In this document: piece by piece, positions 22,895-43,900 of the stretch | Layout of the letters: the number at the start of each line of letters is the position of its first letter | Numbering within the stretch: the stretch's first letter is position 1 | DNA from: an uncultured Sphingomonas sp. | GTDB lineage: Bacteria > Pseudomonadota > Alphaproteobacteria > Sphingomonadales > Sphingomonadaceae | Direction: 5' to 3' | DNA length: 64,000 bases | Assembly (NCBI GenBank): GCA_966251045.1 | Contig: CBINJP010000020.1 | Location: forward strand, 388-64,387 | Notes under the pieces: model-generated | Told to the model about the DNA's origin: nothing | The model's input: only the letters and a program-made list of their open reading frames with translations | The model's database searches: none | Position numbers and translations under genes: made by a program

Positions 22895-22907
22895 TCGATT
22901 TCTCCCG

Positions 22908-25440: not shown

Positions 25441-26382
25441 ATGTTGAGGATCATCGCGACGGTGTTGGCGGCTTCGCTCCTCTGGGCGATCCCTGCCAGC
25501 GCGCAACCGAAGATGGAAATCGACTATCGGCGCATCGCCAATTGTCAGGCTTATCGCGATTTCGTCAAAGCCTATGGCTCGCCTGCGGAACTGGCCGCAG
25601 GGCTGGCTCAGAAACAGCGTGAATATTGTATTCCCGCGCGCCCCCGGCCTGATCCGATCGCCCGCGAGTGGCGGCAGATCGGCGATTGCAGGTCTCTGGA
25701 AGCATTCGCCGCGCGCTATGGCAGGCTTCGCTATTACAGAAGCAGGATTCCGGCCAAGCGCAGCCAATATTGCAAGCCGTCGCCGCCCCCCAGTCCCGCG
25801 CCGCGCGCTCCGTCGCCCGGCGCCTATCTCTCCGGGTGGGACATGCTCGACCTCTATCGCGACAATTATTTCTGCTACAAATATGAGTCGGGAAATAGCT
25901 GTTCGGACTATGAGGAGCTTTACAGCTTCAACGACGGCCGGCTCACGCTGCGCAAATATCTGCTCTTCCCCGTGCCGGCCAGCAAGGTGCCGCTATGGGC
26001 GACGCGCAGGGAGCCCAATATGCGGCTCACGCTCTTCCAGACCCTGACGCCGCGTGCCGACGGGCTGTGCTGGGACCAATCCGCGCGTGTGGCCGCGGCA
26101 TCCTTCGCCGAGGGCTCGGTCTATACCGCCAATCATTCCTATATCCGGCCCTTCACCGGCCCCGCGCTTGGTGATCTGCGCGGCATGCTGAGCCAGATCG
26201 CCCGGCAGAACAGCACGAGGCTGATCTGTTCGCGCTATCGCAGGGTCTCGGGATCGGTGATCGCTGAGGATGCATTCGACGGCGACGAACAATATGCCTT
26301 TGGCGACCGGATCGTGCTGATCCCGCGCGGGGAATATCAGCCGGTTCTGCGGCTCACCACCGACGGCTATGGCTGGAAATAG
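25441..26382 (+). CDS. Secreted cysteine-rich hypothetical protein with two N-terminal ~35-aa repeats
   Basis: Signal peptide MLRIIATVLAASLLWAIPASA. Internal repeat YRRIANCQAYRDFVKAYG...YC / WRQIGDCRSLEAFAARYG...YC, then a Pro-rich linker and a ~190-aa C-terminal domain. I recognise no family. It has many A/T-ending and AGG/AGA codons. Confidence 0.6.
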   Translation: MLRIIATVLAASLLWAIPASAQPKMEIDYRRIANCQAYRDFVKAYGSPAELAAGLAQKQREYCIPARPRPDPIAREWRQIGDCRSLEAFAARYGRLRYYRSRIPAKRSQYCKPSPPPSPAPRAPSPGAYLSGWDMLDLYRDNYFCYKYESGNSCSDYEELYSFNDGRLTLRKYLLFPVPASKVPLWATRREPNMRLTLFQTLTPRADGLCWDQSARVAAASFAEGSVYTANHSYIRPFTGPALGDLRGMLSQIARQNSTRLICSRYRRVSGSVIAEDAFDGDEQYAFGDRIVLIPRGEYQPVLRLTTDGYGWK

Positions 26383-27862: not shown

Positions 27863-28189
27863 TCATTTGCGCTCCGCCTTGTCCGCGTCCATCTCGTCGC
27901 GTTCGAAATGGATGCCCTCGTCATCGACCCGCAGATAGGGTTCCACGCGCGCATCCAGCCCATAGAGGCGAACCACGTCGCTCACGTTCGAGACGGGGCC
28001 GTCGCCGGTTTGCTGCGGAACCAGATCGTGCGAGCCGGCGCCAGGGCGCCAGAGGGTATCATAGGGGATGAGCGCGAATCCGATCATCGCGATGCTCGCC
28101 GCCACCGCGGCAGTAACGGGCCAGCGCATTCCCGTCTGCTCCTGGCGGGGCCCCGGGGTCTTGCGTTTCTGGATCCTCTGGAGAGCCAT
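27863..28189 (-). CDS. Small single-pass membrane protein (hypothetical)
   Basis: 108-aa ORF with ATG at 28189. Has a basic N-terminus and one TM helix (WPVTAAVAASIAMIGFALI). It is packed 9 nt after the PBP-like gene and 31 nt before the kinase-like gene. Confidence 0.5.
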   Translation of the reverse strand: MALQRIQKRKTPGPRQEQTGMRWPVTAAVAASIAMIGFALIPYDTLWRPGAGSHDLVPQQTGDGPVSNVSDVVRLYGLDARVEPYLRVDDEGIHFERDEMDADKAERK

Positions 28190-28198
28190 GGCGCGTTC

Positions 28199-30574
28199 CT
28201 AGTTTCCGGGCGCCGGCGCCCGGCAGGGCGTCGTCATCCATCGCAGATAGGCCGAATCGGGAGCGGTCAGCAGTTCGGCGGCGAAGGCGAGCGCGTCGGT
28301 GGTCCGGCGCTGCAGGTTGATGACCAGCACTTTCAGCCCGCAGATTTGCGAGGGCATGGCGGGCAGCGCGCCCGTGCTGGTCCGCACCGCCATCAGCACC
28401 AGGATATGCCCCTGTTCCTTCGCGGGCTGATCGACGTCGGCGGTACCGGTCTTGGCGAAGAAAAAGACACTGCCCTCCACGCCCTGGGGCTGCGCGAGCA
28501 GCTTCCATAACTGTTTGGCGGTGCCCTTCTGGACCACGTTCGACATGGCATCGCGAATCTCGCGCCAGGCCTCCGCATGCATTGCGACGGTATCGGGGGC
28601 GACGTCGCCCTTGGCGGGCGTGAGCCTGGGGCTGATCCCGCGGCCGGAAAGGATGCGCGCATAGGCCTGACCCAGATTGGCGGTACTCCACAGGCTCCGG
28701 TTTCCGCCGATCACGCTCAGGTAGAAATCGATAAAGTCATTGTCCCGCAGCCCCATCATCAGATTGAGCCGCGGCAGTTCGAATGCATTCGACCCGAGCG
28801 GCTGATTGTCCGCGTCGCGCCACAGATGAGGCGAGCAATGGCTGGTGGTCCCATCCCATCCAAGGTCGGGCGCGCCCGGCCGGATGCCATAGGGAATCAC
28901 GCAGCCGAACCGCCAGAGATTCGCCGCCCAGCTTCTTTCGGACGAAAAGCTCTGGCCGGTCCGCTCATCATGCTCGACGCCCTTCTTGGCGAGCACCAGC
29001 GCATATTCGTTGTTGGAGAAAGTGAGGAAGGCATTGAAATCGACCTTCCCGTCGCCGCGATGCCCCGGGGCGTTTTCGATGCCCTGCTTGTCACCCAGCA
29101 TCAGTTGATGCCCATCGACATCGTGAAAGACAGGACGGTAGGGAATGACGAGCTTCAGCAGGTCGGGATAGCGATCGGTCACGGCCGCCGCGAACGGCAC
29201 CTTCGCGGCGGAGCCGATCGTCAGCCCCCGGAAATTCATGTTGGTCCGCAGCCAGTTGAGCCGCGTGCTATCCTCGCGATCGTCCATCGCGAGCTGGTTG
29301 ACCTCGGTGGGGAAGGTCGCCGCGGCGGCGATCTCGCCCGTCAGCCCGTCCATCATCAGTGCCGCGCCGCGATACGAGAAGCGAGGGGGCGATCCGGGCG
29401 CGTTGTCGGCGGTCATCCGCACCGCCAGCCGGCGTTGCAGATCGAGATGCATCCGCCCAACGATCGACGATTCGAAATCGCCGCCCTCGATTCCCGATTG
29501 CTCGAACCATTGCGACACGTCGCGCAGGCTGGGCTCGCGGATCCTCCGGCCAGCCGAGAGTTCGGAAATCGACCCCGGCGTCTCGGCGAGCTGCAGCGTA
29601 CGCTTGCGCCCGCCCTGACCTTCGATCGTCAGGAACTGATCGGGGCGGATCAGCCAGTAACGGACATTGTCATAGGCCGGCTTGGCCTTCCCGGCCTCCC
29701 CCTTCGCGACGAGGCGGCCATCGATATAGATCTGTACCGTGCCGAGCCGCGACGGAATCTCCACCAGCAGCGCCCGGCCGAGCGGCACCAGCGCGATCGC
29801 GGTGGGCTGGAAGGGCGAACCCGGCACGCGCGATTCGAGTGCGAGCACGACGCGCGATGCCTCGCCCCCGTCGAACTCGCCCGCGAAGAGCTGATCGACC
29901 GGGAATTCGGCTTTGGCGCGCCCGCGCGCAAACCTGAAGACGGCGCGCTTCCCGCCGACTTCGGAAAGAACCAGCATCGGCTGGGCGGGGTCATAGCCTT
30001 TCGCCTTGCCCGCGGATTCGCCGCGATAGTTGACGACGCCTTCCCATATCTTTCGCGGCCCGCCCGCCGCGATCAGCACATGCGCGGTGGGCTGCAGGCC
30101 AGCCACACCATTGTCCTCAAGCTGCCAGCGGTTGATCTGCCGCATGTCGAGATCGAGATAGCTGCGGCTCGCATAGGTCATCAGCCGCTTCTCGCACGGC
30201 CCCCGGGGATCCGCGACGAACCAGGGCAGGAAGCGCTGGCGCTCCCACAAGGTCCGGCAATCGCCCCCGGCCTTCAGCACGCGCGCGATCGCGTCCTTGT
30301 CCCACTGGACCCGGATCAGCGGCGGCTGGCCGGGACGCTCGACCATCGTCCGCTTGAACAGGCCTTCGTGCGCCATCTTGTCCACTGCCGCGCGATACCC
30401 GATCTCGGCCGAGAGCTGGCGCGAGCCCGAATTGCCCGCCGGCCAGGGCGGCGAGGCGAGGACCAGCAGCGTTAGCAGCGCGATGCTGAGCGCGATCAGC
30501 ACCTTCTCGGCGCTGACTCGCGGCCACTTGCGCTTGACCTGCGCGGGGGCGTCGCGGCGCGCGAGTTTAGCCAT
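28199..30574 (-). CDS. Divergent class B penicillin-binding-protein-like transpeptidase with a large unknown N-terminal ectodomain
   Basis: ATG at 30574 (MAKLARRD...; the track start at 30610 is a TTG). One TM helix. All three PBP active-site motifs are present with normal spacing: SAAK (29201-29212), SNN (29009-29017) and KTG (28445-28453). The pre-SxxK motif RGAALMMDGLTGEIAAAATFP resembles the conserved bPBP block. Confidence 0.7.
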   Translation of the reverse strand: MAKLARRDAPAQVKRKWPRVSAEKVLIALSIALLTLLVLASPPWPAGNSGSRQLSAEIGYRAAVDKMAHEGLFKRTMVERPGQPPLIRVQWDKDAIARVLKAGGDCRTLWERQRFLPWFVADPRGPCEKRLMTYASRSYLDLDMRQINRWQLEDNGVAGLQPTAHVLIAAGGPRKIWEGVVNYRGESAGKAKGYDPAQPMLVLSEVGGKRAVFRFARGRAKAEFPVDQLFAGEFDGGEASRVVLALESRVPGSPFQPTAIALVPLGRALLVEIPSRLGTVQIYIDGRLVAKGEAGKAKPAYDNVRYWLIRPDQFLTIEGQGGRKRTLQLAETPGSISELSAGRRIREPSLRDVSQWFEQSGIEGGDFESSIVGRMHLDLQRRLAVRMTADNAPGSPPRFSYRGAALMMDGLTGEIAAAATFPTEVNQLAMDDREDSTRLNWLRTNMNFRGLTIGSAAKVPFAAAVTDRYPDLLKLVIPYRPVFHDVDGHQLMLGDKQGIENAPGHRGDGKVDFNAFLTFSNNEYALVLAKKGVEHDERTGQSFSSERSWAANLWRFGCVIPYGIRPGAPDLGWDGTTSHCSPHLWRDADNQPLGSNAFELPRLNLMMGLRDNDFIDFYLSVIGGNRSLWSTANLGQAYARILSGRGISPRLTPAKGDVAPDTVAMHAEAWREIRDAMSNVVQKGTAKQLWKLLAQPQGVEGSVFFFAKTGTADVDQPAKEQGHILVLMAVRTSTGALPAMPSQICGLKVLVINLQRRTTDALAFAAELLTAPDSAYLRWMTTPCRAPAPGN
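29201..29212 (-). other. SxxK (SAAK) putative acyl-enzyme serine motif of the PBP-like protein
   Basis: The reverse complement of 29201-29212 reads TCC GCC GCG AAG (S-A-A-K), within LTIGSAAKVPF. Confidence 0.6.
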
Positions 30575-33140
30575 TGCCCGGCGCCTCCCCGGTTGGCCGT
30601 CCGCAGACAAAGGGCAGCGCCGTCAGCAGCAGCACCGCCATCGCCTCGGCCAGATCGCCGCCCGAGGTCACCGCGAGCAGATAGATGTTCCGCCCGGTGA
30701 ACGGGACCCAGTTCAGATTGGCGAGCACCATATAGGCCGCGGCCCAGAAAAAGGTGATTCGCGCCGCGACCCCGGCGATGCGCGGCCAGTCGCAGGCGGT
30801 ATCGTCCCCGGCTTCGGCATCATCGCGCGGCCTCAGCGCGAGCATCCCCGCCAGGATCACCGCCAGCACCGCCAGCGCACCCAGGCGGCCCCAGGGCCAG
30901 ATGATGTGAACCGCGGCGAGATTGTCCGAATATTGATATTTGCGCAGCGATTGCTGGATGTTCGACTGGGCGAGATATCCATGGCCGATCATCTCGCGGG
31001 TGAGGGGGCCGAGGCTGGTGGTCTGGTCGAGCGATTCGAAGGCGTGGGTGGTGCCGATCTGTTCGACGCGCGAAGGCCAGAGATAGGCGAGCATGCGAAT
31101 GTCGTTGCGATCCCACTCGGAAGTGGTGGCCAAATGCTCGTTGAGCTTCTGCTGGGGTGAGGGAATCTCGCCGCTGAGCGCGATCCCCAGCGCGAACAAG
31201 GCGACCAGCGTGGGCGCCATGGCGAGGGGCATGAGCCACGGCCACCGCTTGACGATCCCGCCAAGCCCTTTCGCGTCCCGAAATCCGAACCAGGCGATCG
31301 CGACCGCGAGCGGTATGCCGTAGACGAGCATCGAACCGAAATCATGGGTCAGCCACGGAACCACGCCATAGGCGGCGAGGAAGAGGACGAGCATCAGTCC
31401 GGTCGAAAGCCCGCGTTTGCGCAGACGCTGCGTACCGTCGAGGAGCAGCGCGAACCCCAGGATCATCGCCGGCACGTAGATCAGGCTCAGCGGCACGCCG
31501 AAGGGCCGCTCGCTGAAGCGCGATCCCAGCAGATAGGCGCCGATCAGCAGCAGGAACAACCGGAAGGCGACCATGGCGACGATGATCGCGATGCCGAGCG
31601 TATAGGTCCGCGGCAGGCGGTCGATCCACGCGAGCAAGGGCCGGACGCGCTGCCAGATACCCTTCTCGCGACGCGGGACCTTCCCGCCGGGGGCTTGCAG
31701 CAGGGCGCCCAGCAACGCGCAGGCGAGCGCCAGCGGGCTCTCGCGTCCCGGCCATACCAACCGTGCCGTCACCGCGACGCCCGTCATGTAAAAGAGGGCC
31801 GCGGGGAGCCCGCCCCAGGCGACCCCGCCCAGCGCGATCGCGATCGCGGTAAAGCCGGCGAGCAGGAGCAATAGGAAAGCGCTCAACATCGGCCGCAGAT
31901 CCGCATCGGCCTGCCGGAAGGCGAGCACGATCAGCATGGGCAGGCAAAGGAAGGATGCCAGTGGATCCCAGAGCACCTCGGTCAGCCCCTGGCGCGAATC
32001 ATAATATAATCCAGCCACGCCAATCAGCAGCCGTAGCGCGAGCAGCCATTGCACCAGCGGCACGAGTACGCGCTCGGGCGTCGGCTTGCGCCACGCCGCG
32101 GCGCAGAGTGCATGCATCGCCAGTGCGCAGAATATCACGAAGAAGCCGGAAAAGACCGGCAGGAACACCTTGCTCGCGTGAAGCGACAACCTGGCGTCGG
32201 CCGCCTCGACGCCGCTGGGCCACGCGAAATCGGTGTCGGTCTTGGCGCAGAGCGACGAGGGTTCGGCCACCGGGCCCAGCCATTTGGCTTCGGCCACGGG
32301 ATTGGCGCCGCCCAGCCCGAGTCCGGTGAAGACGAGATTGTCCGGATCGAGGAATTCCGGCTCCTGTCCGTCGCCGCCCGCCGCGGGCGAAAGGCGCAGG
32401 CGCGGGAGCTTGCACGAGCCGGCATCGGCGACCAGTGGCTCATTCAGGTTGAGCTCGATGACCGGCGAATCGCCGCCCCGCAGATAGAGCGTGAAGGAGC
32501 GCCGCGGGGCCCATTTGCCGTCGAGGTCGATTCTCGAAACGGTGAGCTCGATCGGCTCGCCCGGGATCAACTCGCGTGTCTCGGGCGCACCGGGCTGGAG
32601 CTCGGTATCGCCGATCTTCACGCCCATCCCCGGAATTTCCTGGTCGGACTGCGGCGCGAAGCTCTGGAGCACGATCTCGGCCTTCATCACCGCATCGCTG
32701 TCGGCGGGCCGAGACGGGGCCTTCGCGCGCACCGTCACAAAGGCGCGCGGATCGGCTGGCATCGAAATGCGTGAAAGGCTCTGATCGGCATAGGGCGGTA
32801 CCACCAGGTCCGCCGAATCGCGGCTGTCGCCGACGATCAGGAAGGGCTGGAACTCCGGCGCGGCCGTGTCCTGACGCTTTGCCTCAGTCCCGTCCTCTGC
32901 CCTGGTCGCTTCCGTGGCGACGACGACCGACTGGGGTATCCGCAACTGCATGATCCGGACGGTCAACTGGTCGCCCTCGCCGCCGGCGAGCGCGGCGACG
33001 AAAGCGGCAAAGGGAATGGCGATCAGCAGGAAGGTGCGGAGCAGGCGAAAAACGCCCTTTTCGCCCAGTGACACCCGGTCGAACCATAGCAGCAGGCCGA
33101 ACGCGACGTTCAATCCGGAGAAGATGAGGGTCTCGAACAA
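30567..33140 (-). CDS. Giant SEDS (FtsW/RodA/SpoVE)-like polytopic membrane protein with a ~320-aa N-terminal extension
   Basis: TTG start at 33140, preceded by AAGGA 6 nt upstream. The C-terminal ~520 aa has about 10 hydrophobic helices. SEDS-like blocks are HDFGSMLVYGI (cf. PDLGTAL), GHGYLAQSN (cf. GxGxGxG), QYSDNLAAV (cf. HTDFIFA) and VPFTGRNIYLLAVTSGGDLAEA (cf. PxTGxxLPFxSYGGSS). The N-terminus has two TM helices and a ~270-aa soluble insert. Confidence 0.6.
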   Translation of the reverse strand: MFETLIFSGLNVAFGLLLWFDRVSLGEKGVFRLLRTFLLIAIPFAAFVAALAGGEGDQLTVRIMQLRIPQSVVVATEATRAEDGTEAKRQDTAAPEFQPFLIVGDSRDSADLVVPPYADQSLSRISMPADPRAFVTVRAKAPSRPADSDAVMKAEIVLQSFAPQSDQEIPGMGVKIGDTELQPGAPETRELIPGEPIELTVSRIDLDGKWAPRRSFTLYLRGGDSPVIELNLNEPLVADAGSCKLPRLRLSPAAGGDGQEPEFLDPDNLVFTGLGLGGANPVAEAKWLGPVAEPSSLCAKTDTDFAWPSGVEAADARLSLHASKVFLPVFSGFFVIFCALAMHALCAAAWRKPTPERVLVPLVQWLLALRLLIGVAGLYYDSRQGLTEVLWDPLASFLCLPMLIVLAFRQADADLRPMLSAFLLLLLAGFTAIAIALGGVAWGGLPAALFYMTGVAVTARLVWPGRESPLALACALLGALLQAPGGKVPRREKGIWQRVRPLLAWIDRLPRTYTLGIAIIVAMVAFRLFLLLIGAYLLGSRFSERPFGVPLSLIYVPAMILGFALLLDGTQRLRKRGLSTGLMLVLFLAAYGVVPWLTHDFGSMLVYGIPLAVAIAWFGFRDAKGLGGIVKRWPWLMPLAMAPTLVALFALGIALSGEIPSPQQKLNEHLATTSEWDRNDIRMLAYLWPSRVEQIGTTHAFESLDQTTSLGPLTREMIGHGYLAQSNIQQSLRKYQYSDNLAAVHIIWPWGRLGALAVLAVILAGMLALRPRDDAEAGDDTACDWPRIAGVAARITFFWAAAYMVLANLNWVPFTGRNIYLLAVTSGGDLAEAMAVLLLTALPFVCGRPTGEAPGNG

Positions 33141-33150: not shown

Positions 33151-33753
33151 TCAGGAAACGACGTTGCTTGAGTAGAGCCAGAAATAGGCCCTGCGCGTGA
33201 CGAAGAGCATCGCGATCGAAATGAGAGCGAGCACGAACAGCGCCGGCCACAACAGCGTGAAGAGCCATCCGAACCAGTTCGGCATCACGTCGAGCACGGG
33301 TGACTTCGCCGCGAGCCAGTCCGCAAAGCCGCAATCGCCGAAATCCTTCGTGACGAGCGTCCGGACCACCTCGCGATGCGCGCCCCATCCCTCGAGCCCG
33401 CAGACATGGGTGACCATCCATTCGCTTTCGCGCTCGGGAAGCGGGACCATCCCGGGGCCGCTCGAATCCAGCGCTCCCGAGCGGCGTACATTGTTCGCCT
33501 CTTCGGCAAGCAGCGTCCGCATGCGCAGCCCGAAACCCGCATCCAGCCTGGTCGCGGCCGCAATCGCGGCTGGCGGCTTCGGCCCCCTGAGATCCTGGTT
33601 GAACGCGGTATTCTGGCTGTCGTTGAAGGTCGGGTTCGTGAACACGCCCAGCACCCAGAGCGACACGAAGAACAGCACCCCCAAGGCCCCGGTCAGCGCC
33701 GCCCACCCCCAGCGGAGCTGGTCGCGAAACAGAAAGGCAAGGATCACCTTCAT
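33151..33753 (-). CDS. Two-TM membrane protein (hypothetical)
   Basis: 200-aa ORF with ATG at 33753. TM helices lie near both ends (WAALTGALGVLFFVSLWVLGVF; WLFTLLWPALFVLALISIAMLFV), flanking a ~120-aa loop with two Cys. It sits 15 nt after the GTPase gene and 10 nt before the SEDS-like gene. Confidence 0.5.
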   Translation of the reverse strand: MKVILAFLFRDQLRWGWAALTGALGVLFFVSLWVLGVFTNPTFNDSQNTAFNQDLRGPKPPAAIAAATRLDAGFGLRMRTLLAEEANNVRRSGALDSSGPGMVPLPERESEWMVTHVCGLEGWGAHREVVRTLVTKDFGDCGFADWLAAKSPVLDVMPNWFGWLFTLLWPALFVLALISIAMLFVTRRAYFWLYSSNVVS

Positions 33754-33768: not shown

Positions 33769-35256
33769 TCAGAATTCCGGGATAACGCCGGCATGGGCAA
33801 TCCCCGCGAGCCGCCTGCGCACATTGGCTGCCCAGGAATAATGCTGCCGGAACACCCAGTTGCGGCTTCCCAGTTTCCGGGCGAGCGAGATCCACTGCAG
33901 TACCTCGACCACGCCGTGCGGCGGATGCTTGCGGTAGTGCTCGCGGCTCAGCAGATCGCTGTCCGGCGCCCCGAAATATTCGGGCTGATGCCCGTAAAAT
34001 GCAGTCGCATAATCGAATTTCGAGAGCGGAAAAACCGAGATCAGCTGAGCATGCAGATCGCGCCGCGCCTGATGGATCGTATCCCACGGATTTTCGAGCG
34101 GCAGGTTGCCGGCGCGGTCCGCCAGCGCCCGCAACACGCCGGTCTCCGGACGCTCGCGAAGCTCCGCGTTGCGCAGGCGCAGCATCGCGTCATTCTCGTC
34201 ATTGTAGAAGAGCGACAGCGCCCGGTCCGCCTTGGTCAAGGCGAAGAAGGTCGGGCAATCGAACCCGTTCGGGCCGCCGATGGGGCCGCGATTGGTGACA
34301 TAGTGGCTCTTCACCACCGCCGGCGTGACGCGCTTGAAAGCCTCGGCATCGGCAGGGTCGATATTCTCGTGGCGCATATAGCCGAGCACGCTCGCGACGC
34401 GGAATACGCCCGCCGCGAACTCCTCGAGCTGGTCGGTGCCCCTGCGGAAGTCCTTGGCCCATGCCAGCAGATGCGGCTTGGCCTGATTCACCTGCCTTGC
34501 GGCTGCGCGAAGCGCGGCGGGACTGGGAGCCTCGCCCTCCGGCATGCTCAGCTTGGCGAGGCCGGCCTTGGCGTCGGCCAGCACCTCCTTGTCGTCCGCC
34601 GGCATCAACTCTCCGAAGATCATCAGATCGGTCGGGAGCGCGACGATCATCGCCTTGGCGTAATCCATCGCGCCGAGCAGCATCCGCAGTCTGCTATAGT
34701 CGGCGCTGATCAGGTCGTGAGTCTGGTCGCCCGGCATGTCGATCAGCACGAACGTCTTCGGCTTGCCATGGACATAATGGAACTGGAGGTCGCTGGTGCT
34801 CGGCAACGTCGCCGATTCGCCGTCCTCCGCCGTGACCCGCTTGAATTCGGGATCGCTCGGCATGCTGAAGGGCGCCTTAAGCAGCTGCTCCTTCATCCGG
34901 TGCAGCAGCCAGGTCTTGCCGGCGCCGCCGAAGCCGACGAACAGAATCGCGAACAGGCCCTTCGCCTTGATCTCCTTCAACTCGTCGAAGAAAATCTCTT
35001 CCTGGGTCTTTGGCCGAATGGGAATGGTGCCGCCTCGCGCCGCGCCGCCGCCCGGCGCCATGGGCGGAGGAGCCGGGGTCGGGCCGGGGCCGGGACCGGG
35101 CACGGGCAGCGCGACGACCCGTTGAGTCGTCGGTTCGGGGGTCTTGTCGTCCTGCTCTTCCACCTTTTCCCCCGCGCCGAATATCTCGCAAAGGCTGCAT
35201 CGACCCGTTTCAGGATCGATGGGTTCCCGGTGGACACCGCAGACCTCGCTGGCCAC
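33769..35256 (-). CDS. P-loop GTPase (TRAFAC-type motifs) with N-terminal Cys/His cluster and Pro-rich linker
   Basis: GTG start at 35256-35254 overlaps the upstream TAG by 1 nt. Motifs: G1 GFGGAGKT (34912-34935), G3 DMPG (34729-34740) and G4 TKAD (34225-34236). The N-terminus has C-x2-H...C-x2-C (CGVHREPIDPETGRCSLC). There are about 165 aa between G3 and G4. Confidence 0.65.
   Translation of the reverse strand: MASEVCGVHREPIDPETGRCSLCEIFGAGEKVEEQDDKTPEPTTQRVVALPVPGPGPGPTPAPPPMAPGGGAARGGTIPIRPKTQEEIFFDELKEIKAKGLFAILFVGFGGAGKTWLLHRMKEQLLKAPFSMPSDPEFKRVTAEDGESATLPSTSDLQFHYVHGKPKTFVLIDMPGDQTHDLISADYSRLRMLLGAMDYAKAMIVALPTDLMIFGELMPADDKEVLADAKAGLAKLSMPEGEAPSPAALRAAARQVNQAKPHLLAWAKDFRRGTDQLEEFAAGVFRVASVLGYMRHENIDPADAEAFKRVTPAVVKSHYVTNRGPIGGPNGFDCPTFFALTKADRALSLFYNDENDAMLRLRNAELRERPETGVLRALADRAGNLPLENPWDTIHQARRDLHAQLISVFPLSKFDYATAFYGHQPEYFGAPDSDLLSREHYRKHPPHGVVEVLQWISLARKLGSRNWVFRQHYSWAANVRRRLAGIAHAGVIPEF
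34912..34935 (-). other. Walker A / G1 motif of the GTPase
   Basis: The reverse complement reads GGC TTC GGC GGC GCC GGC AAG ACC (G-F-G-G-A-G-K-T). Confidence 0.7.
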
Positions 35257-36701
35257 TAACGCGCCTTGAGCAGCATCATCGCGAAGAAGAGCGATTCAAC
35301 CACCGGCCAATGCCGATGCCCGCACCCCTCCGAATAATATTCACGCTGCAGGACAGTGGTCGACAACGCTTCCAGAACCCCCCGAGACTTGGTTGAGATA
35401 ATCTTCAACAAATCCTTGCTTGTCAAAACAAGAAGGTCGCGCCGGAATGCCGGAGGCCATGATTTGATGGTCGCCTTGAGCTTCTCGAACGATTCGTTCC
35501 GGGGTTCGAGCGTGTCGATCGATTTTCGAATCAACGAGATGATGTTTCCGCGCAGATCCGGATCGGTCGCGGTCTTGCCGGACCGCGTCGCTTCGAGCGC
35601 ATATCCCACCAATTCGGACAGGTCGCCGGCATGGACGTTCCCGTCCATCTGCTTGCCGTAGCAGGCCAGCGCGAGCGCGGCGAAATCGGGCGAGCCACTG
35701 CCCATTGCCTTCAGCACGGCGCTCAGCGGCGCGTCCATCCCCTGTTCGTGAAGCGCCGCGACATATTCGGGCTGCACGCTGCGTACCGCGCCCGCCAATG
35801 CAGGCACCCCGGCATCCCGGAAAGTACCGAGCAGCTCGAGCATGGTCAGGGGGGGGAGCGCGCTGCTGGCCATGCGCAGCGCATCCGCCGCCACGCGCTC
35901 GGCCGGCAGCGCGCCATAGCCCTGGCGCCATTTCAGTGCGGACACTGCCGGCGCGAAATTATTCTTCCCGCCGATATGCTGCTTGGCCGCCTCCCAGGCG
36001 AGCCAGGCCGGCGGCGGCGGGGCGGCAGGCTTCTCGCCGTCCGATTTCATGGAATAGGGCAACAGACCCGGCGGCGGTGCCGCGACGGGCTCGGTAGCGA
36101 CCACCAGCTGGCTGTCCCGAAGCAGATCGAGCCCTCCGCGCGGCACCAGCTGCGCCGAGGTCGCCCAGCCGGCTACTCGCGGCCGTTCCTCGACGGGCCA
36201 AACCGACCGAAGCGCTTCGATCAGGATGGCATCGCGGTCCTCGTCACGCTCGACCAGGATCAGGCGATCGGCCCAGGCCAGGCCCAGATCCGGCCAGTCC
36301 AACTGCTCCTGCTCCGGAACGGCCACCTCTACGGGATCGCGCCCGAAATTGCCGGTCCCGTCGGGCTCCTTGATCTCGCCCAGCACCAGTTCGGTGCGAT
36401 GGCCGAGCGCCGCCAGACTCGCGCTGTCGATCATTACGCCATTCAGAAAGGCTTCTTCGCCCAGCGCGCCGCGACCGCGATACCACGCGCGGAACACGAC
36501 CGCGCCCTCGCCCTCGGGCAGCGCCACGCACGCGGCGAAGCTCTTCTCATCCGTTCTGGACCATTCCATCAGCACCATCGCCAGGTCGGTGGCGCGGGTG
36601 AAGGCGATGGGCGAGGATTGGGCAAGCACGCGATAATTGCGCCCCTGCGATTGCGGCCCGATCACGAAGGTCGGCAGCGTGAGCCGCCCGCCTCCAGTCA
36701 T
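35256..36701 (-). CDS. Hypothetical 481-aa soluble protein, candidate GTPase partner
   Basis: ATG at 36701 forms an ATGA overlap with the upstream gene stop (36698-36700). I recognise no motif. The N-terminal ~120 aa alternate beta/alpha-like segments. There is a Pro-rich linker (PVAAPPPGLLP...KPAAPPPPAW). The C-terminal half is helical, with visibly lower GC. Confidence 0.55.
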   Translation of the reverse strand: MTGGGRLTLPTFVIGPQSQGRNYRVLAQSSPIAFTRATDLAMVLMEWSRTDEKSFAACVALPEGEGAVVFRAWYRGRGALGEEAFLNGVMIDSASLAALGHRTELVLGEIKEPDGTGNFGRDPVEVAVPEQEQLDWPDLGLAWADRLILVERDEDRDAILIEALRSVWPVEERPRVAGWATSAQLVPRGGLDLLRDSQLVVATEPVAAPPPGLLPYSMKSDGEKPAAPPPPAWLAWEAAKQHIGGKNNFAPAVSALKWRQGYGALPAERVAADALRMASSALPPLTMLELLGTFRDAGVPALAGAVRSVQPEYVAALHEQGMDAPLSAVLKAMGSGSPDFAALALACYGKQMDGNVHAGDLSELVGYALEATRSGKTATDPDLRGNIISLIRKSIDTLEPRNESFEKLKATIKSWPPAFRRDLLVLTSKDLLKIISTKSRGVLEALSTTVLQREYYSEGCGHRHWPVVESLFFAMMLLKAR

Positions 36702-37465
36702 CCGCCCGAACCTCTCCGCGTTGGCGCTGGCCCGCAATCGGTGCTCGCGTTGGGCCGTACCTTCGCCAAGTTTTGCTCAACCCTGCAAAGTTCGTTCGTA
36801 TCGCGATACTTGTTTGTCGCCGCGCAACCCACTTTGAAGCCCTCAGAAGCGCGAATCCGCGCTATTTCCGCATCGATATTCCACCTCGCCTGGCAGATTT
36901 TCAGGTCGGCGTCGGACACTGCCTTACGTGCTTCATTGCCCAAGGCCAGTTCGCGCTCCTGCCCGGCGCTGTTTTGTGAGAAATAAAGGGCTGCGCCACC
37001 CAATAGTAACGCGAGCGGTAGCGCGATCAAAATAAACAGAAGGAATTGCCTCACTTGGACAGTCCGGGCCCACCGGCTTGTACCATCTTCGCCGGGCGGC
37101 TTGCCCTCGACCGGCGGATCGGAGTCCAGCGGTGCTTCGGCGGTCACGGGCTCGTCCGGCGGTATGGAAGGGAGCGGCGGGTCCGGGACTTCGCTCTTCG
37201 GTGGGTCCTTCGGGCCGAGGGTCTTCGGCAACTTTGCGATCACCGCATCGGCCACCGCCTGCGCGTCGGGCCAGGCGATTCCCTTCAGACTTGCCGTCAT
37301 CGACGATTTAATCTGCGCGTCGATCGATTCCTTGAAGGCCTTGTCCAGCCCTGTCTGACGCCCCGCCGCGACTTCCCTCGCGATGAATTCAAGCACGAAC
37401 TCCGCCATTTGCTGCTGGAGGGTCGCGAAGGCGTCCGGTTCTTCTTGTTCGTCGGTGGCGCTCAT
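36698..37465 (-). CDS. Bitopic membrane protein: acidic cytoplasmic N-terminus, Pro-rich linker, four-Cys C-terminal domain (hypothetical)
   Basis: 255-aa ORF with ATG at 37465, the first gene of the operon. Has a TM helix FLLFILIALPLALLLGGAALYF and a C-terminal segment with 4 Cys (KICQARW...GCAATNKYRDTNELCRVEQ...STDCGP). Confidence 0.55.
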   Translation of the reverse strand: MSATDEQEEPDAFATLQQQMAEFVLEFIAREVAAGRQTGLDKAFKESIDAQIKSSMTASLKGIAWPDAQAVADAVIAKLPKTLGPKDPPKSEVPDPPLPSIPPDEPVTAEAPLDSDPPVEGKPPGEDGTSRWARTVQVRQFLLFILIALPLALLLGGAALYFSQNSAGQERELALGNEARKAVSDADLKICQARWNIDAEIARIRASEGFKVGCAATNKYRDTNELCRVEQNLAKVRPNASTDCGPAPTRRGSGG

Positions 37466-37924: not shown

Positions 37925-40900
37925 ATGCCGGCATCGACCAAGGCAGAGAATGGAAAAGAGGCGCCTCCGGCGGCGTCTCCCCCTGCCATCTCGCTCGCCA
38001 AGGGCGGCGGGGCGATCCGCAGCATGGGGGAGAAGTTCGCCGCCAATCCGGTAACCGGCACTGCCTCGATGACGATTCCCGTCGCGGTGAGCCCGGGACG
38101 GGCGGACTTCGGCCCCCAATTGTCGCTCAGTTACGATTCGGGTTCGGGAAACGGCATATTCGGCCTTGGCTGGAGTCTGTCGCTGCCCGCCATCGCGCGC
38201 AAGACCGCGAAGGGACTCCCCCGCTATCGCGACTCCGAGGAGTCGGACGATTTCATCCTGTCGGGCACCGACGATCTGGTGCCCGTGCTGCTTCCGGACG
38301 GAACCCGGCAGCGCGATGAGACGATTGCGGCGGGCTATATCGTTCACCGCTACCGGCCGCGCATCGAAGGGCTGTTTGCGCGCATCGAGCGCTGGACACG
38401 CAAGAGCGACGGCGATGTCCATTGGCGCACGCTCTCGCGCGAGAATGTCCTGAGCCTCTATGGCGCCAATGCGGACTCGCGAATCTTCGATCCCGCGGAC
38501 AAGACCCGCATCTTCAGCTGGCTGATCAGCGAGACCCGCGACGATCGCGGCAATGTGATCCTTTACGATTACAAACCGGACGACGGCGTCGGCGTCGATC
38601 TGTCGCGGGTCTGCGAACGCAGCCGCGGCGTGGCGAACGCGCCGGGACGAGCCACCAACCGCTATCTGAAGTCGGTTCGCTACGGGAACAGGGCGCCGCT
38701 GCTGACGGCGGCGGGCAAGCGCCCGGCATTCCTGTCCGACCTGCCGGCCGCGAAGCTTGCCGGCGCCGAATGGATGTTCCGGGTCGTGCTCGATTATGGC
38801 GAGCATGACGGCGCCGCGCCCTCTCCGGGCGATGCGGGCGTCTGGGCCTTCCGTGCCGATCCCTTCTCGTCCTGCCGCTCGGGATTCGAGGTTCGCACCA
38901 CGCGCCTGTGCCGCCGCGTCCTCATGTTTCACCATATCCCCGATCTCCCGACCGGCGAGGCGGGGTATGACGGCCTCGTCCGGTCGACCGACTTCACCTA
39001 TCGCGGCGACCTCGATCCGTCCGATGCCCGCAATCCGGTCTATGCCCAGCTGGTCCAGGTGGAGCAGGCGGGATACCGCAAGCTGGGCGACGGCAGCTAT
39101 GTCCGGCGCAGCCTGCCGCCGGTCGAGTTCGATTATTCGGTCCCCGAGATCGACGAGACGGTCCGCGACATCGACCCGGCGAGCATGGAGAATCTTCCGG
39201 GCGGGGTGGACGGCTCGCATTATCGCTGGGTCGATCTTCACGGCGAAGGGGTGCCCGGCATCCTCTCCGAACAGGCCGGCGCCTGGTTTTACAAACGCAA
39301 TATAAGCCCGATCAGCGCCACGCCGGTCGGCTTCGCCCCGGCCGAATGCGTCGCCGCAAAGCCGAACCGGGCGATTGCGGGGGGGCATGCCCAGTTCATG
39401 GATCTGGCCGGAGACGGCCTCCCCGACCTGGTCGATCTGCGCGTGCCCGGCGCGGGCCTGTACGAGCATGACCTTGCCGAGGGCTGGGAGAAGTTCCGGC
39501 CGTTCGTCGCCCCTCTCAACCGCGATACGCGCGATCCCAATGTCCGCCTGATCGATCTGACCGGCGACGGCGCGCCCGACATCCTGGTCACCGAAGACGA
39601 TGCGATGGTCTGGCATCCGTCATTGGCCGAGGACGGGTTCGGCCCGGGCCAGCGGGTCGCCTGGGCCGCCGATGAGGAAAAGGGGCCGCGGCTGCTGTTC
39701 GCCGACGCGACCCAGTCCATCCACTTCGCCGATCTCAGCGGTGACGGGCTAACCGACCTCGTGCGCATCCGGAACGGCGAGATCTGCTATTGGCCGAATC
39801 TCGGTTATGGCCGGTTCGGCGCGAAGATCACGATGAACGGATCGCCGCTGTTCGATCATGCCGATCGCTTCGATCACCGGCGCGTGCTGCTAGGCGATAT
39901 CGATGGCTCCGGCACGACCGATATCGTCTATCTCCACCCCGACGGGATCAGGCTCTACTTCAACCAGTCGGGCAATGGCTGGAGCGCCGCGCGGCTGCTG
40001 CGGGTGCTGCCGCCGGCGGGGCCGATGGTGTCGGTGACCATCGCCGACCTGCAAGCCAACGGCACCGCGAGCCTGGTCTGGTCGTCGCCGCTTGCGAGCG
40101 ATGCGCGCCGGCCGATGCGCTACCTGAACCTGATGGGTGCCACCAAGCCGCATCTGATGGTCAGGATGGCGAACAATCTGGGTGCCGAGACCCTCATCAG
40201 CTACGCGACCTCGACCAAATTCTACCTTCGGGACCGGCGCGACGGCACGCCCTGGATCACGCGGCTGCCCTTCCCGGTGCACGTCGTCGAGCGCGTCGAG
40301 ACGCTGGACCGGGTCGCGCGGAACCGCTTCGTCACGCGCTATGCCTATCACCATGGTTATTTCGACGGGCCCGAGCGCGAATTCCGCGGCTTCGGCATGG
40401 TCGAGCAATGGGATACCGAGGATTATGCCGCGCTCGCCGCCGATGGCGTGCTCGCGCCGGGCGACAACGAGCATCCGTCCTCGCGCGTGGCGCCGGTCCA
40501 TTCCAAGACCTGGTTCCACACCGGCGCCTGGTTCGGCCGCGACCATGTGTCGGACTATTTCGCCGGGCTGCTGAACGGCGTCGATCGCGGGGAATATTAT
40601 CGCGAGCCGGGCCTGAGCGACGCCCAGGCGCGGGCAATGCTGCTTGCGGATTCAATCCTTCCGCCGGGCCTGTCGATCGAGGAGGAGCGCGAGGCGGTCC
40701 GCGCGCTCAAGGGATCGACTCTGCGCACCGAACTCTATGCCGATGACGGCACCGCGCGCGCGGTGCATCCCTATACGGTCACCGAGCAAAATCTCGCGGT
40801 CAGGCTCGAACAGGGACGCGGGATCAATCGTCACGCGGTCTTCTCCACCCATGCCAGCGAGACGCTCACCTACGAATATGACCGCGATCCCGCCGACCCG

Positions 40901-43900
40901 CGGATCCAGCATGGGCTCACGCTCGAGGTCGATGCGTTCGGCAATGTGCTCAAGGACGCGGCAGTCTCCTATGGGCGGCGCGTTCCGGACGCGGGGCTGC
41001 CGCTCCCGGCGGATCGCGCCCGGCAGGCGGTGCCGCTCGTCACTTATACCGAGCGCCGCTTCACCAACGCGATCGACGATCCCGCCCTGTTCCCCGGCGA
41101 TCACCGCACGCCGCTTCTCTGCGAGACCCGCGCCTTCGAACTGACCGGCTATTCTCCGGGCGGTCCGGCGGGGCGCTTCCGCGCCGCGGACCTGGTGCAG
41201 CCGGTCGCGGGCAAGCTCCAGAACGTCTTCGACACCGAGCTTGGCTATGAGATGTCCGCGACGACCGGGCGCCAGCGCCGGCTGATCGATCTGGAACGCG
41301 GCCTGTTCCGGCGTTCCGATCTGACCGCGCTGTCGCCGCTGGGGACGATCGACTCGCTCGCGCTTGCCGGCGAAAGCTACCGGCTGGCATTCACGCCCGA
41401 ACTGATCGCCGCGGTGTTCGAGCGCGACGGCACGGCGCTGATGGCGAGCCCCTCCGCCATTCTCGGGGCGAGCGGTGGCAGCGGCGGCGGCTATCTGCTC
41501 AGCCAGGCCGCCAAGGCCGATGGCCGGTTCCCGGCCTCCGACAAGGATCACTGGTGCTGGGTGCCGTCCGGCCGCAGCTATTTGTCGCCCGGGTCCGCCG
41601 ACACGCCGGCGGCGGAGCGCGCCTATGCGCAGGACCATTTCTTCCTGCCGCTGCGCAAGCGCGACGGATTCCACGCGGCGGGCTTCAGTACCGAAAGCCT
41701 CGTGACCTATGACGGGCACGACCTGCTGCCCGTCGAGTCACGCGACGCCGTCGGCAACCGCGAAACGGCAGGCGAGCGCAAGGCCGACGGTACCCGCGAT
41801 CCGGCCAGCCTCGGCAACGACTACCGGGTCTTGCGGCCGGCTTGCGTCACCGATCCCAACGGCAACCGGGGGCAGGTTGCCTTCGATGTGCTCGGCATGG
41901 TGGCGGGCTCGGCGGTGATGGGGAAGCCGGGCGAGAGCCTAGGCGATCGTCTGACCGGCTTCGCGCCCGACCTGACGCAAGCTGAGATAGCGTCGCACAT
42001 CGCCAATCCACTCGCCGCGCCCGAGCTGATCCTGGGCCATGCGACGACACGCTCGGTCTATGATCTCTTCGCCTATCACCGGACGCGCACGGACCCGCAG
42101 CCTATGCCGGTCACGGTCGCGACCTTGATGCGCGACACGCATGACGCCGAGGTGGCGAGCGGCGCCGCGCTGGGCATCCAGCTGGGCTTTTCCTATTCCG
42201 ACGGCTTCGGCCGCGAGGTCCAGCAGAAGGTGCGGGCGGAGGCCGGCGCGCTCGTCGACGGCGGTGCGCCGCTGGCGGTGCGGTGGGTCGGGACCGGCTG
42301 GACCATCCACAACAACAAGGGCAAGCCGGTCCGGCAATTCGAGCCCTTTTTCTCGGCCACCCACCAGTTCGAATTCGGCATCGCGGTCGGCGTCAGTCCG
42401 ATCCTCTTCTACGATCCGCTGGAACGCGTCGTGGTCACGCTCCACCCCGACGAAACCTATGAGAAGGCGGTGTTCAGCCCGTGGCGCGAGGCCAATTGGG
42501 ATGCCAATGACACGGTCGACGGCGATCCGCGCACCGACCCCGACATCATGGGCTACACCGCCGCCTATTTCGCTGGCCCGGCCCCGCCCGCGTGGCAGGG
42601 ATGGAAGAACCGGCGCGCGGGCGGCGCGATGGGGGCGGAGGAACAGGACGCCGCCACCAAGGCGGCGCGGCACGCGGGCACGCCCAGCATCGTCCATCTC
42701 GACGTATTGGGGCGGGCGTTCCTCACGCTTTCGGACAATGGCCCCGATCCCGCCATGCCGGGCCAGCATCTCCTGTTCGCGAACCGGGTCGAACTCGACA
42801 TCGAGGGCAATTCGCGCAGCGTGCGCGACGCGATCGTGCAGGCGGGGGACGCCGCCGGCCGGATCGTCATGCGCTACGCCTATGACATGCTCGGCAATCG
42901 TGTCCGGCAGGAGAGCATGGAGGCGGGCCGCCGGTGGATGCTCAATGACGCCGCCGTGAAGCCGATCCGCGGCTGGGACGATCGCGGGCATGTCGTCCGT
43001 ACTGAATATGATCCGTTGCGCCGCCCGGTTCGGTCGTTCGTGCTGGGTGCCGATCCGTCCGATCCCGCGCTGGATGTGCTGACCGAACGGCTCGTCTATG
43101 GCGAGCAGCATCCCGATGCGGAGGCGCGCAACCTGCGCGACACGCTCTATCTCCATCTCGACCAGGCGGGGGCGGTCGCGACCGAGCGGAAGGATTTCAA
43201 GGGCAATGCCCTCGCCGCATCGCGCCGGCTGACCAAGGGGACCCTGTACCGGGGGACCATCGACTGGACCGCTGTCGACGCGGACGCCACCGCACTGCCC
43301 CCGGACGCGACCGCGCCGCTGGGCCTCGCCGCGCTGGCGACCGCACTCGGCGCGCAGCTCGAAGCCGATGCCTATGTGAGCGGCAGCAGCTTCGACGCGC
43401 TCGACCGCGCGGTCCTGGTCACCTCGCCGCATACCGCCGCGATGAAGCCCAGCGTGATGCGTCCGGCCTATAATCTGGCCGGGCTGCTCGAGCGGGTCGA
43501 TGCGAACCTCAGGGGCGAGGAGGTGGCCGGCGTTCCCGTCTGGACGGCGTTCATCGCCAATATCGATTACGACGCCAAGGCCCAGCGGCGGCGGATCCTG
43601 TACGGCAACCAGGTCTCCACGCGTTACGATTATGATCCGCTGACCTTCCGGATGCGGCGCATGGTGACCGCGCGCGCCGCTGCCGCCTATCCGGCCGATT
43701 GCCCGAACCCGCCCGTCGCCGGCTGGCCGGGATGTGAGGTGCAGAGCCTCCACTATACATACGATGCCGTCGGCAACATCACCCGCGTCCGCGACGCCGC
43801 GCAGCAGGCGGTGTACTTCACGAACCAGCGAGTCGAGCCGAGCGCGGACTATACCCATGATGCGCTCTACCGCCTGATCGGGGCCACCGGCCGCGAGCAT

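Follow-up and report, generated by a model that had tools for sequence, protein, structure and literature searches.

A zinc-ribbon TRAFAC-type GTPase encoded in a rare, conserved nine-gene cassette with a penicillin-binding-protein-like transpeptidase in an uncultured Sphingomonas

Known synthases that pair a SEDS protein with a class B penicillin-binding protein (bPBP) are guided by cytoskeletal polymers, FtsZ, FtsA, and MreB among them, and our literature searches turned up no dedicated signaling-type GTPase that shares an operon with a peptidoglycan synthase. The described systems that come closest to the locus reported here are built around the DO-GTPases (PF19975/PF19993; Kaur, Burroughs, Iyer, and Aravind 2020, PMC7159879), a TRAFAC family whose Walker B motif conserves a glutamate (DxxGE) and in which 60% of the members carry N-terminal zinc ribbons and membrane proximity is frequent. 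Their obligatory partner is GAP1, joined by GASH or FNIII components and often by a second, paralogous GTPase; the published GAP1-N2 systems are membrane proximal and touch the cell wall, with a kinase and PP2C as additions in one theme (PMC7159879). Here, we describe a GTPase gene in 64,000 nucleotides (nt) of DNA from an uncultured Sphingomonas sp. (assembly GCA_966251045.1, contig CBINJP010000020.1; hereafter the window, meaning the whole stretch that was analyzed, to which all coordinates refer unless another locus is named). The gene, which a preliminary description of the window had presented as an atypical TRAFAC-like GTPase embedded in a peptidoglycan-synthase operon, is the third of a cassette whose genes we call A to I and is referred to as gene C. 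We lean, with modest confidence, toward a reading in which gene C is the cytoplasmic nucleotide switch of a self-contained, mobile, nine-gene accessory envelope machine whose output would be GTP-gated envelope remodeling.

Gene C spans positions 33769 to 35256 on the reverse (-) strand, which also encodes all other cassette genes and motifs described below except where the forward (+) strand is indicated, and it specifies a zinc-ribbon TRAFAC-type GTPase of 495 amino acids (aa) that is supported by its open reading frame (ORF) and translation and by 13 homologue clusters. Its GC content at third codon positions (GC3) of 0.81 matches that of other genuine genes in this window of 67% GC, and the ORF is real. 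The GTG start codon overlaps the TAG stop codon of gene B by one base (TAGTG), as had been proposed. Near the N terminus, residues 6 to 23 (35188 to 35241) form a zinc knuckle or ribbon of the type C-x2-H/C ... C-x2-C, with CGVH at residues 6 to 9 and CSLC at residues 20 to 23; the second CxxC pair is kept in all full-length homologues, and the first is CxxH or CxxC in most. The disordered, Pro/Gly-rich and acidic linker that follows (residues 27 to 79; 35020 to 35178), with the sequence PVPGPGPGPTPAPPP, differs in both length and sequence among homologues and is modeled with a predicted local distance difference test score (pLDDT) of <50. Both the Cys/His cluster and the linker had been recognized in the preliminary description, and its suggestion that the former could be a zinc ribbon is supported.

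The G motifs follow in the expected order. G1, or Walker A, is GFGGAGKT (residues 108 to 115; 34912 to 34935), in which G108, A112, G113, K114, and T115 are invariant; a candidate G2/switch-I residue, Thr154 (34795 to 34797), lies just before strand 2 and is Thr in 11 of 14 homologues and Ser in the other 3; G3, or Walker B, is DMPGD (residues 173 to 177; 34726 to 34740), with D173 and G176 invariant; and G4 is TKAD (residues 341 to 344; 34225 to 34236), with T341, K342, and D344 invariant. A G5-like signature, FDYATAFYGH (residues 414 to 423; 33988 to 34017), coincides with strand 6, and F414, D415, F420, G422, and H423 do not vary. The residue that follows DxxG, position 177, is Asp in the window protein and acidic throughout the close family (9 of 14 homologues have Glu and the other 5 have Asp), and at least 90% of 87 remote relatives have Glu there, while TK[AS]D is kept in all of the relatives ranked P0001 to P0030 and in most further relatives down to about P0061. 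Across 14 homologues that share just 30 to 53% identity, the residues G108, AGKTWLLHR (112 to 120), D173, G176, P208, D210, T341, K342, and D344 are invariant, and a C-terminal signature, FDYxxAFYGH ... HYxxHP, is conserved; at such divergence, the motifs are not a product of chance and must be under constraint. The G1, G3, and G4 motifs named in the preliminary description are thus all present in the translation and conserved in homologues, and the G3-to-G4 spacing, which it had put at about 165 residues, is 168 residues from D173 to T341.

A model of gene C, generated with AlphaFold2 on the homologue alignment (mean pLDDT, 77; predicted TM-score, 0.76), begins with a strand (102 to 108), the P-loop, a helix (114 to 126), and a strand hairpin (158 to 162 and 169 to 173) that ends in DxxG, and continues through helices, a strand (202 to 208), an all-helical block (209 to 321), and a strand (336 to 341) running into TKAD, to a second helical block (344 to 408), a strand (413 to 416) followed by TAFYGH, and C-terminal helices. 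As modeled, this is the order of elements of a TRAFAC GTPase, with helices 3 and 4 expanded into helical bundles. The large insertion that had been suspected between G3 and G4 is found in the model as the block at residues 209 to 321 (34294 to 34632), which lies between strands 4 and 5 and adds about 115 helical residues. A Foldseek search of the model against the PDB gave no strong match (best E of 0.03; range, 0.03 to 0.3), and the named PDB matches among the top 50 are all GTPases (EF-Tu, Der, Arf, G-alpha, Toc34, LeoA, atlastin, mitofusin, IRG, YcjX, and SR-beta); a search against viral structures returned nothing significant. When a profile of 14 sequences was compared with all PDB sequences, the best matches were mainly Sar1, Arf, Arl, and SR-beta (E of about 0.04), confined to the P-loop and helix 1.

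Scans of the gene C protein with Pfam, NCBIfam, and PADLOC models likewise yielded matches limited to the P-loop, with E values of 0.02 to 0.2 and none above threshold, including one to the NCBIfam small_GTP model (E of 0.037). Genes B, E, and F, scanned in the same way, also gave no match that passed its threshold. The top raw Pfam matches of the window protein are AAA_22, PIF1, and Mg_chelatase (E of 0.02 to 0.15), as might be expected were gene C some other P-loop NTPase, such as an ATPase, a kinase, or an AAA-like protein, in which the G3 and G4 motifs are coincidental. We consider this extremely improbable: those matches span just about 40 residues around Walker A, TKxD and DxxG are invariant, a strand 2/strand 3 hairpin follows the conserved Thr, the top fold matches are all GTPases, and the relatives match MMR_HSR1 and DO-GTPase models. 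Over all searches, the non-GTPase P-loop families matched weakly and in the P-loop region only (AAA_22, PIF1, Mg_chelatase, and AAA_33, E of 0.02 to 0.18; PezT, E of 0.88), and no profile or fold search favored one of them over GTPases; among P-loop proteins, the profile and fold searches of gene C point, though weakly, to GTPases almost exclusively. The invariant motifs, the fold order of the model, and the GTPase-dominated fold matches together support the initial assignment as a TRAFAC-like GTPase carrying the (N/T)KxD motif of guanine specificity.

Close relatives of gene C are exceedingly rare. The close family amounts to 13 clusters among 5.8 billion nonredundant proteins, and a scan of 185,579 species-representative genomes with family-specific peptide patterns, which counts close relatives only, located it in three metagenome-assembled genomes (MAGs): one each from Caulobacterales, Pseudomonadota, and Novosphingobium. 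An exhaustive hidden Markov model (HMM) search of 1.84 billion cluster representatives recovered 148 relatives at an E of <=1e-3, of which 56 are at <=1e-30. The Pfam scan of the 87 remote relatives produced family-specific matches to DO-GTPase2 (8 members; the best E of 2.2e-6 came from a batch scan that gave no bit score) and DO-GTPase1 only, and these relatives also match MMR_HSR1 (down to 4.6e-5) and Pfam zinc-ribbon models. The window protein itself has no Pfam match to DO-GTPase1 or DO-GTPase2. Neither the nine orthologues of gene B (Pfam, E of <=10) nor the other cassette proteins scanned have a match to GAP1 (GAP1-N1/N2, -M, or -C), noting that HMMER filters may hide very weak matches, and GASH and FNIII are also without a Pfam match in the cassette proteins scanned. 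Judged by its sequences, the gene C family is a distant, previously unclassified, DO-GTPase-like sister family; we do not call gene C a member of the DO-GTPases because it fails the Pfam threshold and is without the defining partners. The preliminary description had named MglA/MglB polarity systems and predicted GTPase-centric conflict systems as distantly comparable, assigning the protein to neither, and the latter are the best lead, in view of the relatives' matches to DO-GTPase1 and DO-GTPase2, the shared zinc ribbon, and the DxPG[E/D] form of Walker B.

Gene C never occurs alone at the loci examined. The order A-B-C-D-E-F-G-H-I is identical in seven independent loci (L001, L002, L003, L008, L009, L010, and L011), an eighth (L004) keeps the same order to the end of its contig, through a truncated H, and the order holds in part in two contig-limited, more divergent loci (L006 and L007), with identities down to 28%. 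A more distant locus, L014, keeps A to G and has the genes of a genuine protein kinase and of a PP2C phosphatase as its neighbors, and in a far sister locus, L015, a related GTPase (GGGQSGKS, DPSGE, and SKGD), which scores 28 bits against the wide-family HMM, is still joined to E-like and F-like genes. The composition of the cassette is fixed except for gene I. In the seven loci, its products are a bitopic membrane protein (A, 206 to 315 aa), a soluble partner (B, 472 to 512 aa), the GTPase (C, 476 to 549 aa), a protein with two transmembrane segments (TMs) (D, 199 to 243 aa), a polytopic membrane protein (E, 825 to 848 aa), a PBP-like protein (F, 770 to 800 aa), a small bitopic protein (G, 104 to 110 aa), a kinase-like membrane protein (H, 514 to 585 aa), and a secreted variable protein (I, 375 to 496 aa). 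By hydropathy, B and C are the only soluble ones; A, F, G, and H have one TM each, D has two, and E has about 12.

Within the window, the genes overlap at the A/B (ATGA), B/C (TAGTG), and E/F (ATGGCTAA) junctions, and the intergenic gaps measure about 9 to 13 nt, except for about 31 nt ahead of the likely start of H. Such tight packing and overlapping junctions indicate one operon with translational coupling; a promoter and terminator scan of the operon found no more sites than in shuffles. Much of the cassette is without recognizable kin, in that no homologues were detectable for the conserved proteins A, B, D, and G, for the N-terminal domains of E and F, or for the N-terminal module of I, and literature searches on DO-GTPase follow-ups, on SEDS/bPBP proteins with GTPases or pseudokinases, and on PBPs with anti-phage systems found no description of it.

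Gene F (28199 to 30574; 791 to 803 aa, with 791 aa from the ATG at 30574, which overlaps the end of gene E by 8 nt) encodes a bitopic, class-B-PBP-like transpeptidase with a single TM at residues 31 to 58; the roughly 330 residues ahead of the transpeptidase domain have no detectable match. Three catalytic motifs are invariant over nine orthologues: the active-site SxxK (SAAK; 29201 to 29212), whose S467 and K470 align to S330 and K333 of PBP2; SxN (SNN, residues 532 to 534; 29009 to 29017), in a colinear alignment with PBP2 and FtsI; and KTG(T) (residues 720 to 723; 28442 to 28453), which is aligned to K-S/T-G-T of the same two proteins. Scores against family models are below their cutoffs (Pfam Transpeptidase, E of 0.004 and 16.8 versus 22.1 bits; NCBIfam pbp2_mrdA, E of 5.9e-5 and 21.8 versus 455 bits). 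The best four matches in a PDB profile search are all class B PBPs, and hhalign of F against Escherichia coli PBP2 plus FtsI scored 34.1, compared with 17.2 +/- 3.0 for 40 column shuffles (all lower) and about 17.5 for reversed profiles. Given the invariant catalytic motifs, the PDB matches, and the hhalign score above controls, gene F probably encodes an active, if divergent, class-B-PBP-type transpeptidase that is catalytically intact by motif.

Gene E (30567 to 33140; 857 aa) encodes a polytopic membrane protein with two N-terminal TMs, an extracytoplasmic, beta-rich domain of about 260 residues with conserved Cys, and then about 10 TMs. Toward its C terminus come a long loop, an Asp (D739; 30924 to 30926) that is invariant in 12 sequences, including two remote ones, two TMs, a short PxxG...SGG loop, and the last TM, an arrangement whose resemblance to SEDS proteins is not statistically supported. 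In FtsW, the catalytic-Asp motif is HTD297, and there is an SYGG loop (PMC8765783); hhalign pairs D739 of E (YSDN) with D262 of RodA, GxGYL with GKGWL, and PFTGRN..TSGGD with PxxGxPLP..SYGGS, in an alignment that is not significant. Against E. coli RodA plus FtsW, E values were 0.17 to 0.21, equal to those of reversed controls, and 12 of 100 shuffles scored as high or higher. The motif alignment was accordingly rejected as evidence for homology to SEDS proteins, its score being the same as those of the reversed and shuffled controls. Twelve gene E homologues have no Pfam match at an E of <=10, including FTSW_RODA_SPOVE (PF01098) and Wzy_C, and PDB profile searches with full-length gene E and with its C-terminal domain returned no SEDS protein. 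A SEDS ancestry of gene E is possible. Of the SEDS/bPBP peptidoglycan-synthase operon that had been proposed, the bPBP-like part therefore stands, in gene F, and the SEDS-like part, assigned to gene E, is a resemblance of motifs and topology only; nor is this an ordinary operon of that kind, its nine genes being a fixed set in which a pseudokinase and a secreted variable protein are included.

The E-F pair nonetheless invites comparison with morphogenetic modules of the housekeeping type, in which an extra SEDS-bPBP pair would be placed by a polarity GTPase, in an MglA/MglB or FtsZ-guided manner, for stalk, bud, or polar growth in some Alphaproteobacteria. The order of E and F and their 8-nt overlap resemble those of rodA-pbp2 and ftsW-ftsI pairs, F resembles a bPBP, one TM of E is preceded by a long loop that carries an invariant Asp and the last TM by a PxxG...SGG loop, mreB adjoins the cassette in L004, and hosts include Caulobacterales and Novosphingobium. 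We regard such a role as quite improbable. A cassette present in 3 of 185,579 species genomes is not typical of any lineage, the SEDS homology is not above null and 12 homologues are without an FTSW_RODA_SPOVE match, and in most loci the flanks bear no relation to genes of division or elongation. Nor did a Roadblock/MglB-like partner come to light: Roadblock/LC7 is absent from B, E, and F at an E of <=1 to 10 and from H and the short A, D, and G at an E of <=0.01 to 0.1 (D and G partly via orthologues). The analogy to MglA/MglB drawn in the preliminary description is accordingly not upheld, there being no Roadblock/MglB match in any partner (the three short ones scanned in part) and gene C, at 495 aa, not being Ras sized.

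The product of the cassette might also be an envelope polymer other than peptidoglycan, with E as a Wzy/WaaL-like polymerase or ligase, I as a beta-helix glycanase or epimerase, F as a serine acyltransferase or esterase with the beta-lactamase fold, and the GTPase as a regulator of assembly or secretion. The large extracytoplasmic, beta-rich domain of E and the right-handed beta-helix domains of gene I would suit this arrangement, and the best membrane-enzyme match of E in Foldseek is the O-antigen ligase WaaL (rank 6, E of 0.63), but the model of E is of low confidence, so that its matches are not meaningful. Other observations that make this alternative very unlikely are that E has no Pfam match to Wzy_C, that the best matches of F are specifically to class B PBPs, and that the cassette is without sugar-nucleotide or glycosyltransferase genes. 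The AlphaFold2 model of gene E (pLDDT of 58.6) was discarded as too poor for a fold search.

The remaining genes encode a second soluble protein and a set of membrane or secreted proteins. Gene B (35256 to 36701), whose TAG stop overlaps the GTG of gene C, lies upstream of the GTPase in every locus. The length of 481 aa initially given for this neighbor holds if translation starts at the ATG at 36701, which overlaps the stop of gene A. Its C-terminal half is helical-repeat-like, and residues 24 to 35 contain a conserved FVIGPxxQGRxY (GPESQGRGY in the window) that superficially resembles a degenerate P-loop (GxxxxGR). Nine orthologues of gene B have no Pfam match at an E of <=10, and a full-PDB profile search gave only weak matches. 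That B might be a degenerate second GTPase was rejected, as hhalign finds no similarity to gene C (E of 0.36). Gene A (36698 to 37465; 255 aa; TM at residues 135 to 164) is a bitopic membrane protein and is the first gene of the cassette in all loci; gene D (33151 to 33753; 200 aa), whose ATG lies 13 nt after the GTPase stop, has two TMs (residues 16 to 42 and 160 to 191) and a conserved position in the cassette. Gene G (27863 to 28189; 108 aa), recognized from its ORF and TM segment, is a small bitopic protein whose counterparts measure 104 to 110 aa in eight close loci and 145 aa in L014.

Gene H (26398 to 27831) combines a kinase-like domain, one TM (residues 362 to 388), and an extracytoplasmic, Cys-containing domain; its ORF is open to 27963, with a likely start at M45. 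The kinase-like fold is evident from profile matches (Pkinase, E of 5.6e-9 and 5.8e-6 for orthologues; PADLOC kinase models, E of 9.6e-8 for the H of the window). In the alignment, the catalytic loop reads HL[D/E/G], with its Asn and Lys missing and the Asp of HRD not invariant, and on these grounds H is probably a membrane-tethered pseudokinase. At the corresponding position in L014 (17341 to 20102 of that locus, -), a convergent Pkinase gene (638 aa) is followed by the PP2C gene, an arrangement that echoes the kinase/PP2C theme of GAP1-N2 systems.

Orthologues of gene I carry a signal peptide and share a conserved Cys module at the N terminus; their C terminus is variable, with Sel1 repeats in L003 and a beta-helix in most loci. 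No same-strand remnant of gene I was found downstream of H in the window; what lies there is gene X (25441 to 26382, +), convergent with the operon, which encodes a secreted protein of 313 aa with a signal-peptide-like N terminus and two copies of the N-terminal Cys module of gene I, and whose GC3 is lower (0.75). A tblastn search with gene I of L003 matched gene X at 25645 to 25773 (E of 0.007) and at 25450 to 25578 (E of 0.19). The inversion and lower GC3 of gene X suggest that the variable last gene has been rearranged or replaced in the window.

The cassette has different flanks in every locus, among them transposases, RES domains, DUF736, and a ParB-like helix-turn-helix. An extremely rare cassette that is patchily distributed and differently flanked in every genome is best explained as an accessory one, and it is probably a horizontally acquired or mobile system. 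In the window, a complete Tc (ABC) toxin locus (37925 to 55580, +) lies divergent from the operon. The first Tc gene encodes a 2,669-aa TcB-TcC fusion (SpvB, TcdB middle domains, and FG-GAP) ending in an Ntox5 toxin domain, and the second encodes a 3,218-aa TcA (VRP1, ABC_toxin_N, neuraminidase-like, and TcB-binding domains) with an N-terminal PG_binding_1. The downstream flank (14297 to 25450) is devoted to carbohydrate catabolism and is unrelated to the cassette, with genes for a glycoside hydrolase family 2 (GH2) glycosidase, an alpha-L-fucosidase, a zinc-dependent alcohol dehydrogenase (Zn-ADH), a GntR/FCD regulator, a 3-keto-disaccharide hydrolase, and a GMC oxidoreductase. Elsewhere, an mreB homologue in L004 (6513 to 7556 of that locus, -) is directly upstream of the cassette and divergent from it, which was not seen in other loci. 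The partial GTPase at the contig start of L015 (1 to 936 of that locus, +) carries the peptide TNPGEVWFHVIDNRLTFLDPSGEFFRILSAGES twice, probably an assembly artifact at the contig end or a short tandem duplication. A remote E-like protein of 1,045 aa (P0165; JGI 3300067032) is encoded in a wholly unannotated operon of genes for 402, 551, 412, 571, 1,045, 882, and 182 aa, which, going by this resemblance, hints at a wider superfamily of such cassettes.

As a nucleotide switch, gene C would work as follows. Its GTP/GDP state would be set with the help of the translationally coupled B, a candidate GTPase-activating protein (GAP), guanine nucleotide exchange factor (GEF), or adaptor, and the membrane pseudokinase H may add an extracytoplasmic input via its outer domain. 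C would dock on the membrane proteins from the cytoplasmic side, with the zinc ribbon and the C-terminal helices, which are basic and aromatic, as candidate docking elements, and the state of C would govern the assembly or activity of a membrane core made up of E, the transpeptidase F, and the small proteins A, D, and G. Once licensed, the E-F core would build or cross-link a cell-wall or envelope polymer locally, and the secreted, variable I or X would be the outer, diversifying component. The role so envisaged is conditional envelope remodeling, possibly in response to invaders or stress, as opposed to housekeeping growth or division.

Several points weigh against this proposal. The window protein's own similarity to known GTPase families is below threshold (E of 0.04 to 0.2 with Pfam and NCBIfam and 0.03 to 0.3 with Foldseek). 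The link to the DO-GTPases is transitive, and 20 relatives, when scanned singly, score 16 to 24 bits against a gathering score of 27. Gene E is not demonstrable as a glycosyltransferase, so that F alone carries the label of synthase. A tblastn search of the GTPase against plasmid and phage collections gave no match, and mobility is deduced solely from the differing flanks. The cassette contains no known defense or toxin domain, PADLOC giving generic kinase matches only. All functional statements about the cassette, among them those on GTP hydrolysis, on the directions of regulation, on the substrate of E and F, and on the biological role, are ones that we infer.

The same evidence can be read in terms of a true conflict system of the DO-GTPase type, directed against phages or other invaders, with C and B as a thresholding sensor and E, F, H, and the variable secreted protein as effectors, by which an infected cell would be walled off or killed. 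Remote relatives match DO-GTPase1 and DO-GTPase2, whose family has the zinc ribbon and DxxGE in common with them; GAP1-N2 systems are membrane proximal and wall contacting, and their kinase and PP2C theme recurs in L014; the distribution is sporadic, with transposases and RES domains in the flanks; the last gene is variable (a beta-helix, Sel1, or other domain); and the copy in the window adjoins a Tc toxin locus. The partners scanned, however, contain no GAP1, GASH, FNIII, SLATT, nuclease, TIR, or peptidase effector, there is one GTPase only, B not being its paralogue, and no known defense genes consistently adjoin the cassette. Decoy effectors have degenerate motifs, but those of the PBP are intact here, and the composition of the cassette is fixed save for gene I, unlike the shuffling typical of effectors. 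With no recognized effector or defense domain, we hold the conflict reading to be unlikely, although deserving of serious attention. A narrower and bolder version of the switch, a mobile, GTP-switched wall-building machine in which a DO-GTPase-like sensor licenses a divergent polymerase/transpeptidase pair on demand, for example, to wall off an infected or damaged cell, we consider somewhat more doubtful still; if true, on-demand wall building would constitute a defense or conflict system with peptidoglycan synthesis, and no toxin, as its effector.

Returning to the reading that we prefer, of gene C as the switch of an accessory envelope machine, several of its components recall described systems and depart from them. 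The P-loop and helix 1 of Arf, Sar1, and SR-beta (GLxxAGKTTLLH) resemble those of gene C (GFxxAGKTWLLHR), and SR-beta is also among the fold matches, but the match extends over about 25 residues (E of about 0.04), and gene C is 2.5 times larger, has the zinc ribbon and insertions, and is without an interswitch or an N-terminal amphipathic helix. Dynamin has the motifs DLPG at G3 and TKLD at G4, and the DxPG and TKxD of gene C resemble them. In dynamin-like proteins (LeoA and BDLP) and other large GTPases (atlastin, mitofusin, and IRG), as in gene C, the G domain is elaborated by long helical bundles, and of the closest Foldseek matches of gene C, the one to LeoA is aligned over the greatest length (425 columns; probability, 0.82). 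The similarity to the dynamin-like proteins is nonetheless limited to a Foldseek E of 0.07 and a TM-score of 0.2, with no Pfam Dynamin_N match, and in gene C the helices are inserted into the G domain itself, where they replace helices 3 and 4, rather than forming a separate stalk or paddle.

Among its partners, E and F are, like RodA-PBP2 and FtsW-FtsI, encoded by adjacent, overlapping genes, first a polytopic protein and then a bitopic SxxK/SxN/KTG protein. Unlike SEDS proteins, E has 857 aa, two extra N-terminal TMs, a 260-aa extracytoplasmic domain, and no statistically detectable homology to them, and unlike SEDS-bPBP pairs, E and F are embedded with a GTPase, a pseudokinase, and four other proteins, with F below the Pfam and NCBIfam cutoffs. 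H shares with eukaryote-like Ser/Thr kinases that act as cell-wall sensors (PknB/StkP type) a cytoplasmic kinase fold, one TM, an extracytoplasmic domain, and a gene located with those of cell-wall enzymes, but it differs from them in having no PASTA domains, in missing the catalytic-loop Asn and Lys, and in an HRD Asp that is not invariant. With a nucleotide switch and a pseudokinase sensor joined to a PBP-type enzyme that is catalytically intact, such a fixed operon would provide a compact, testable model of signal-gated wall synthesis, in a cassette that is rare, strictly conserved, largely unannotated, and directly amenable to experiment.

The comparison with the DO-GTPases takes in both the protein and its surroundings. 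Gene C has in common with them the TRAFAC type, the N-terminal zinc ribbon, and an acidic residue right after DxxG (DxPGE in DO-GTPases and DMPGD in gene C), and their systems, like this cassette, consist of membrane-proximal, multigene neighborhoods with cell-wall-facing domains and, in some versions, a kinase/PP2C theme. Gene C is set apart by its two large helical insertions and by the conserved C-terminal FDYxxAFYGH...HYxxHP module, and the cassette is set apart by its single GTPase, with no paralogous pair and no GAP1, GASH, or FNIII partner, and by its fixed PBP-like and 12-TM partners, which have not been described for DO-GTPase systems. The GTPase is thus a new, distant branch of a computationally defined family, and an enzymatic cell-wall output has not been reported before for the GTPase-centric theme; the cassette would extend these computationally predicted systems to a concrete enzymatic output.

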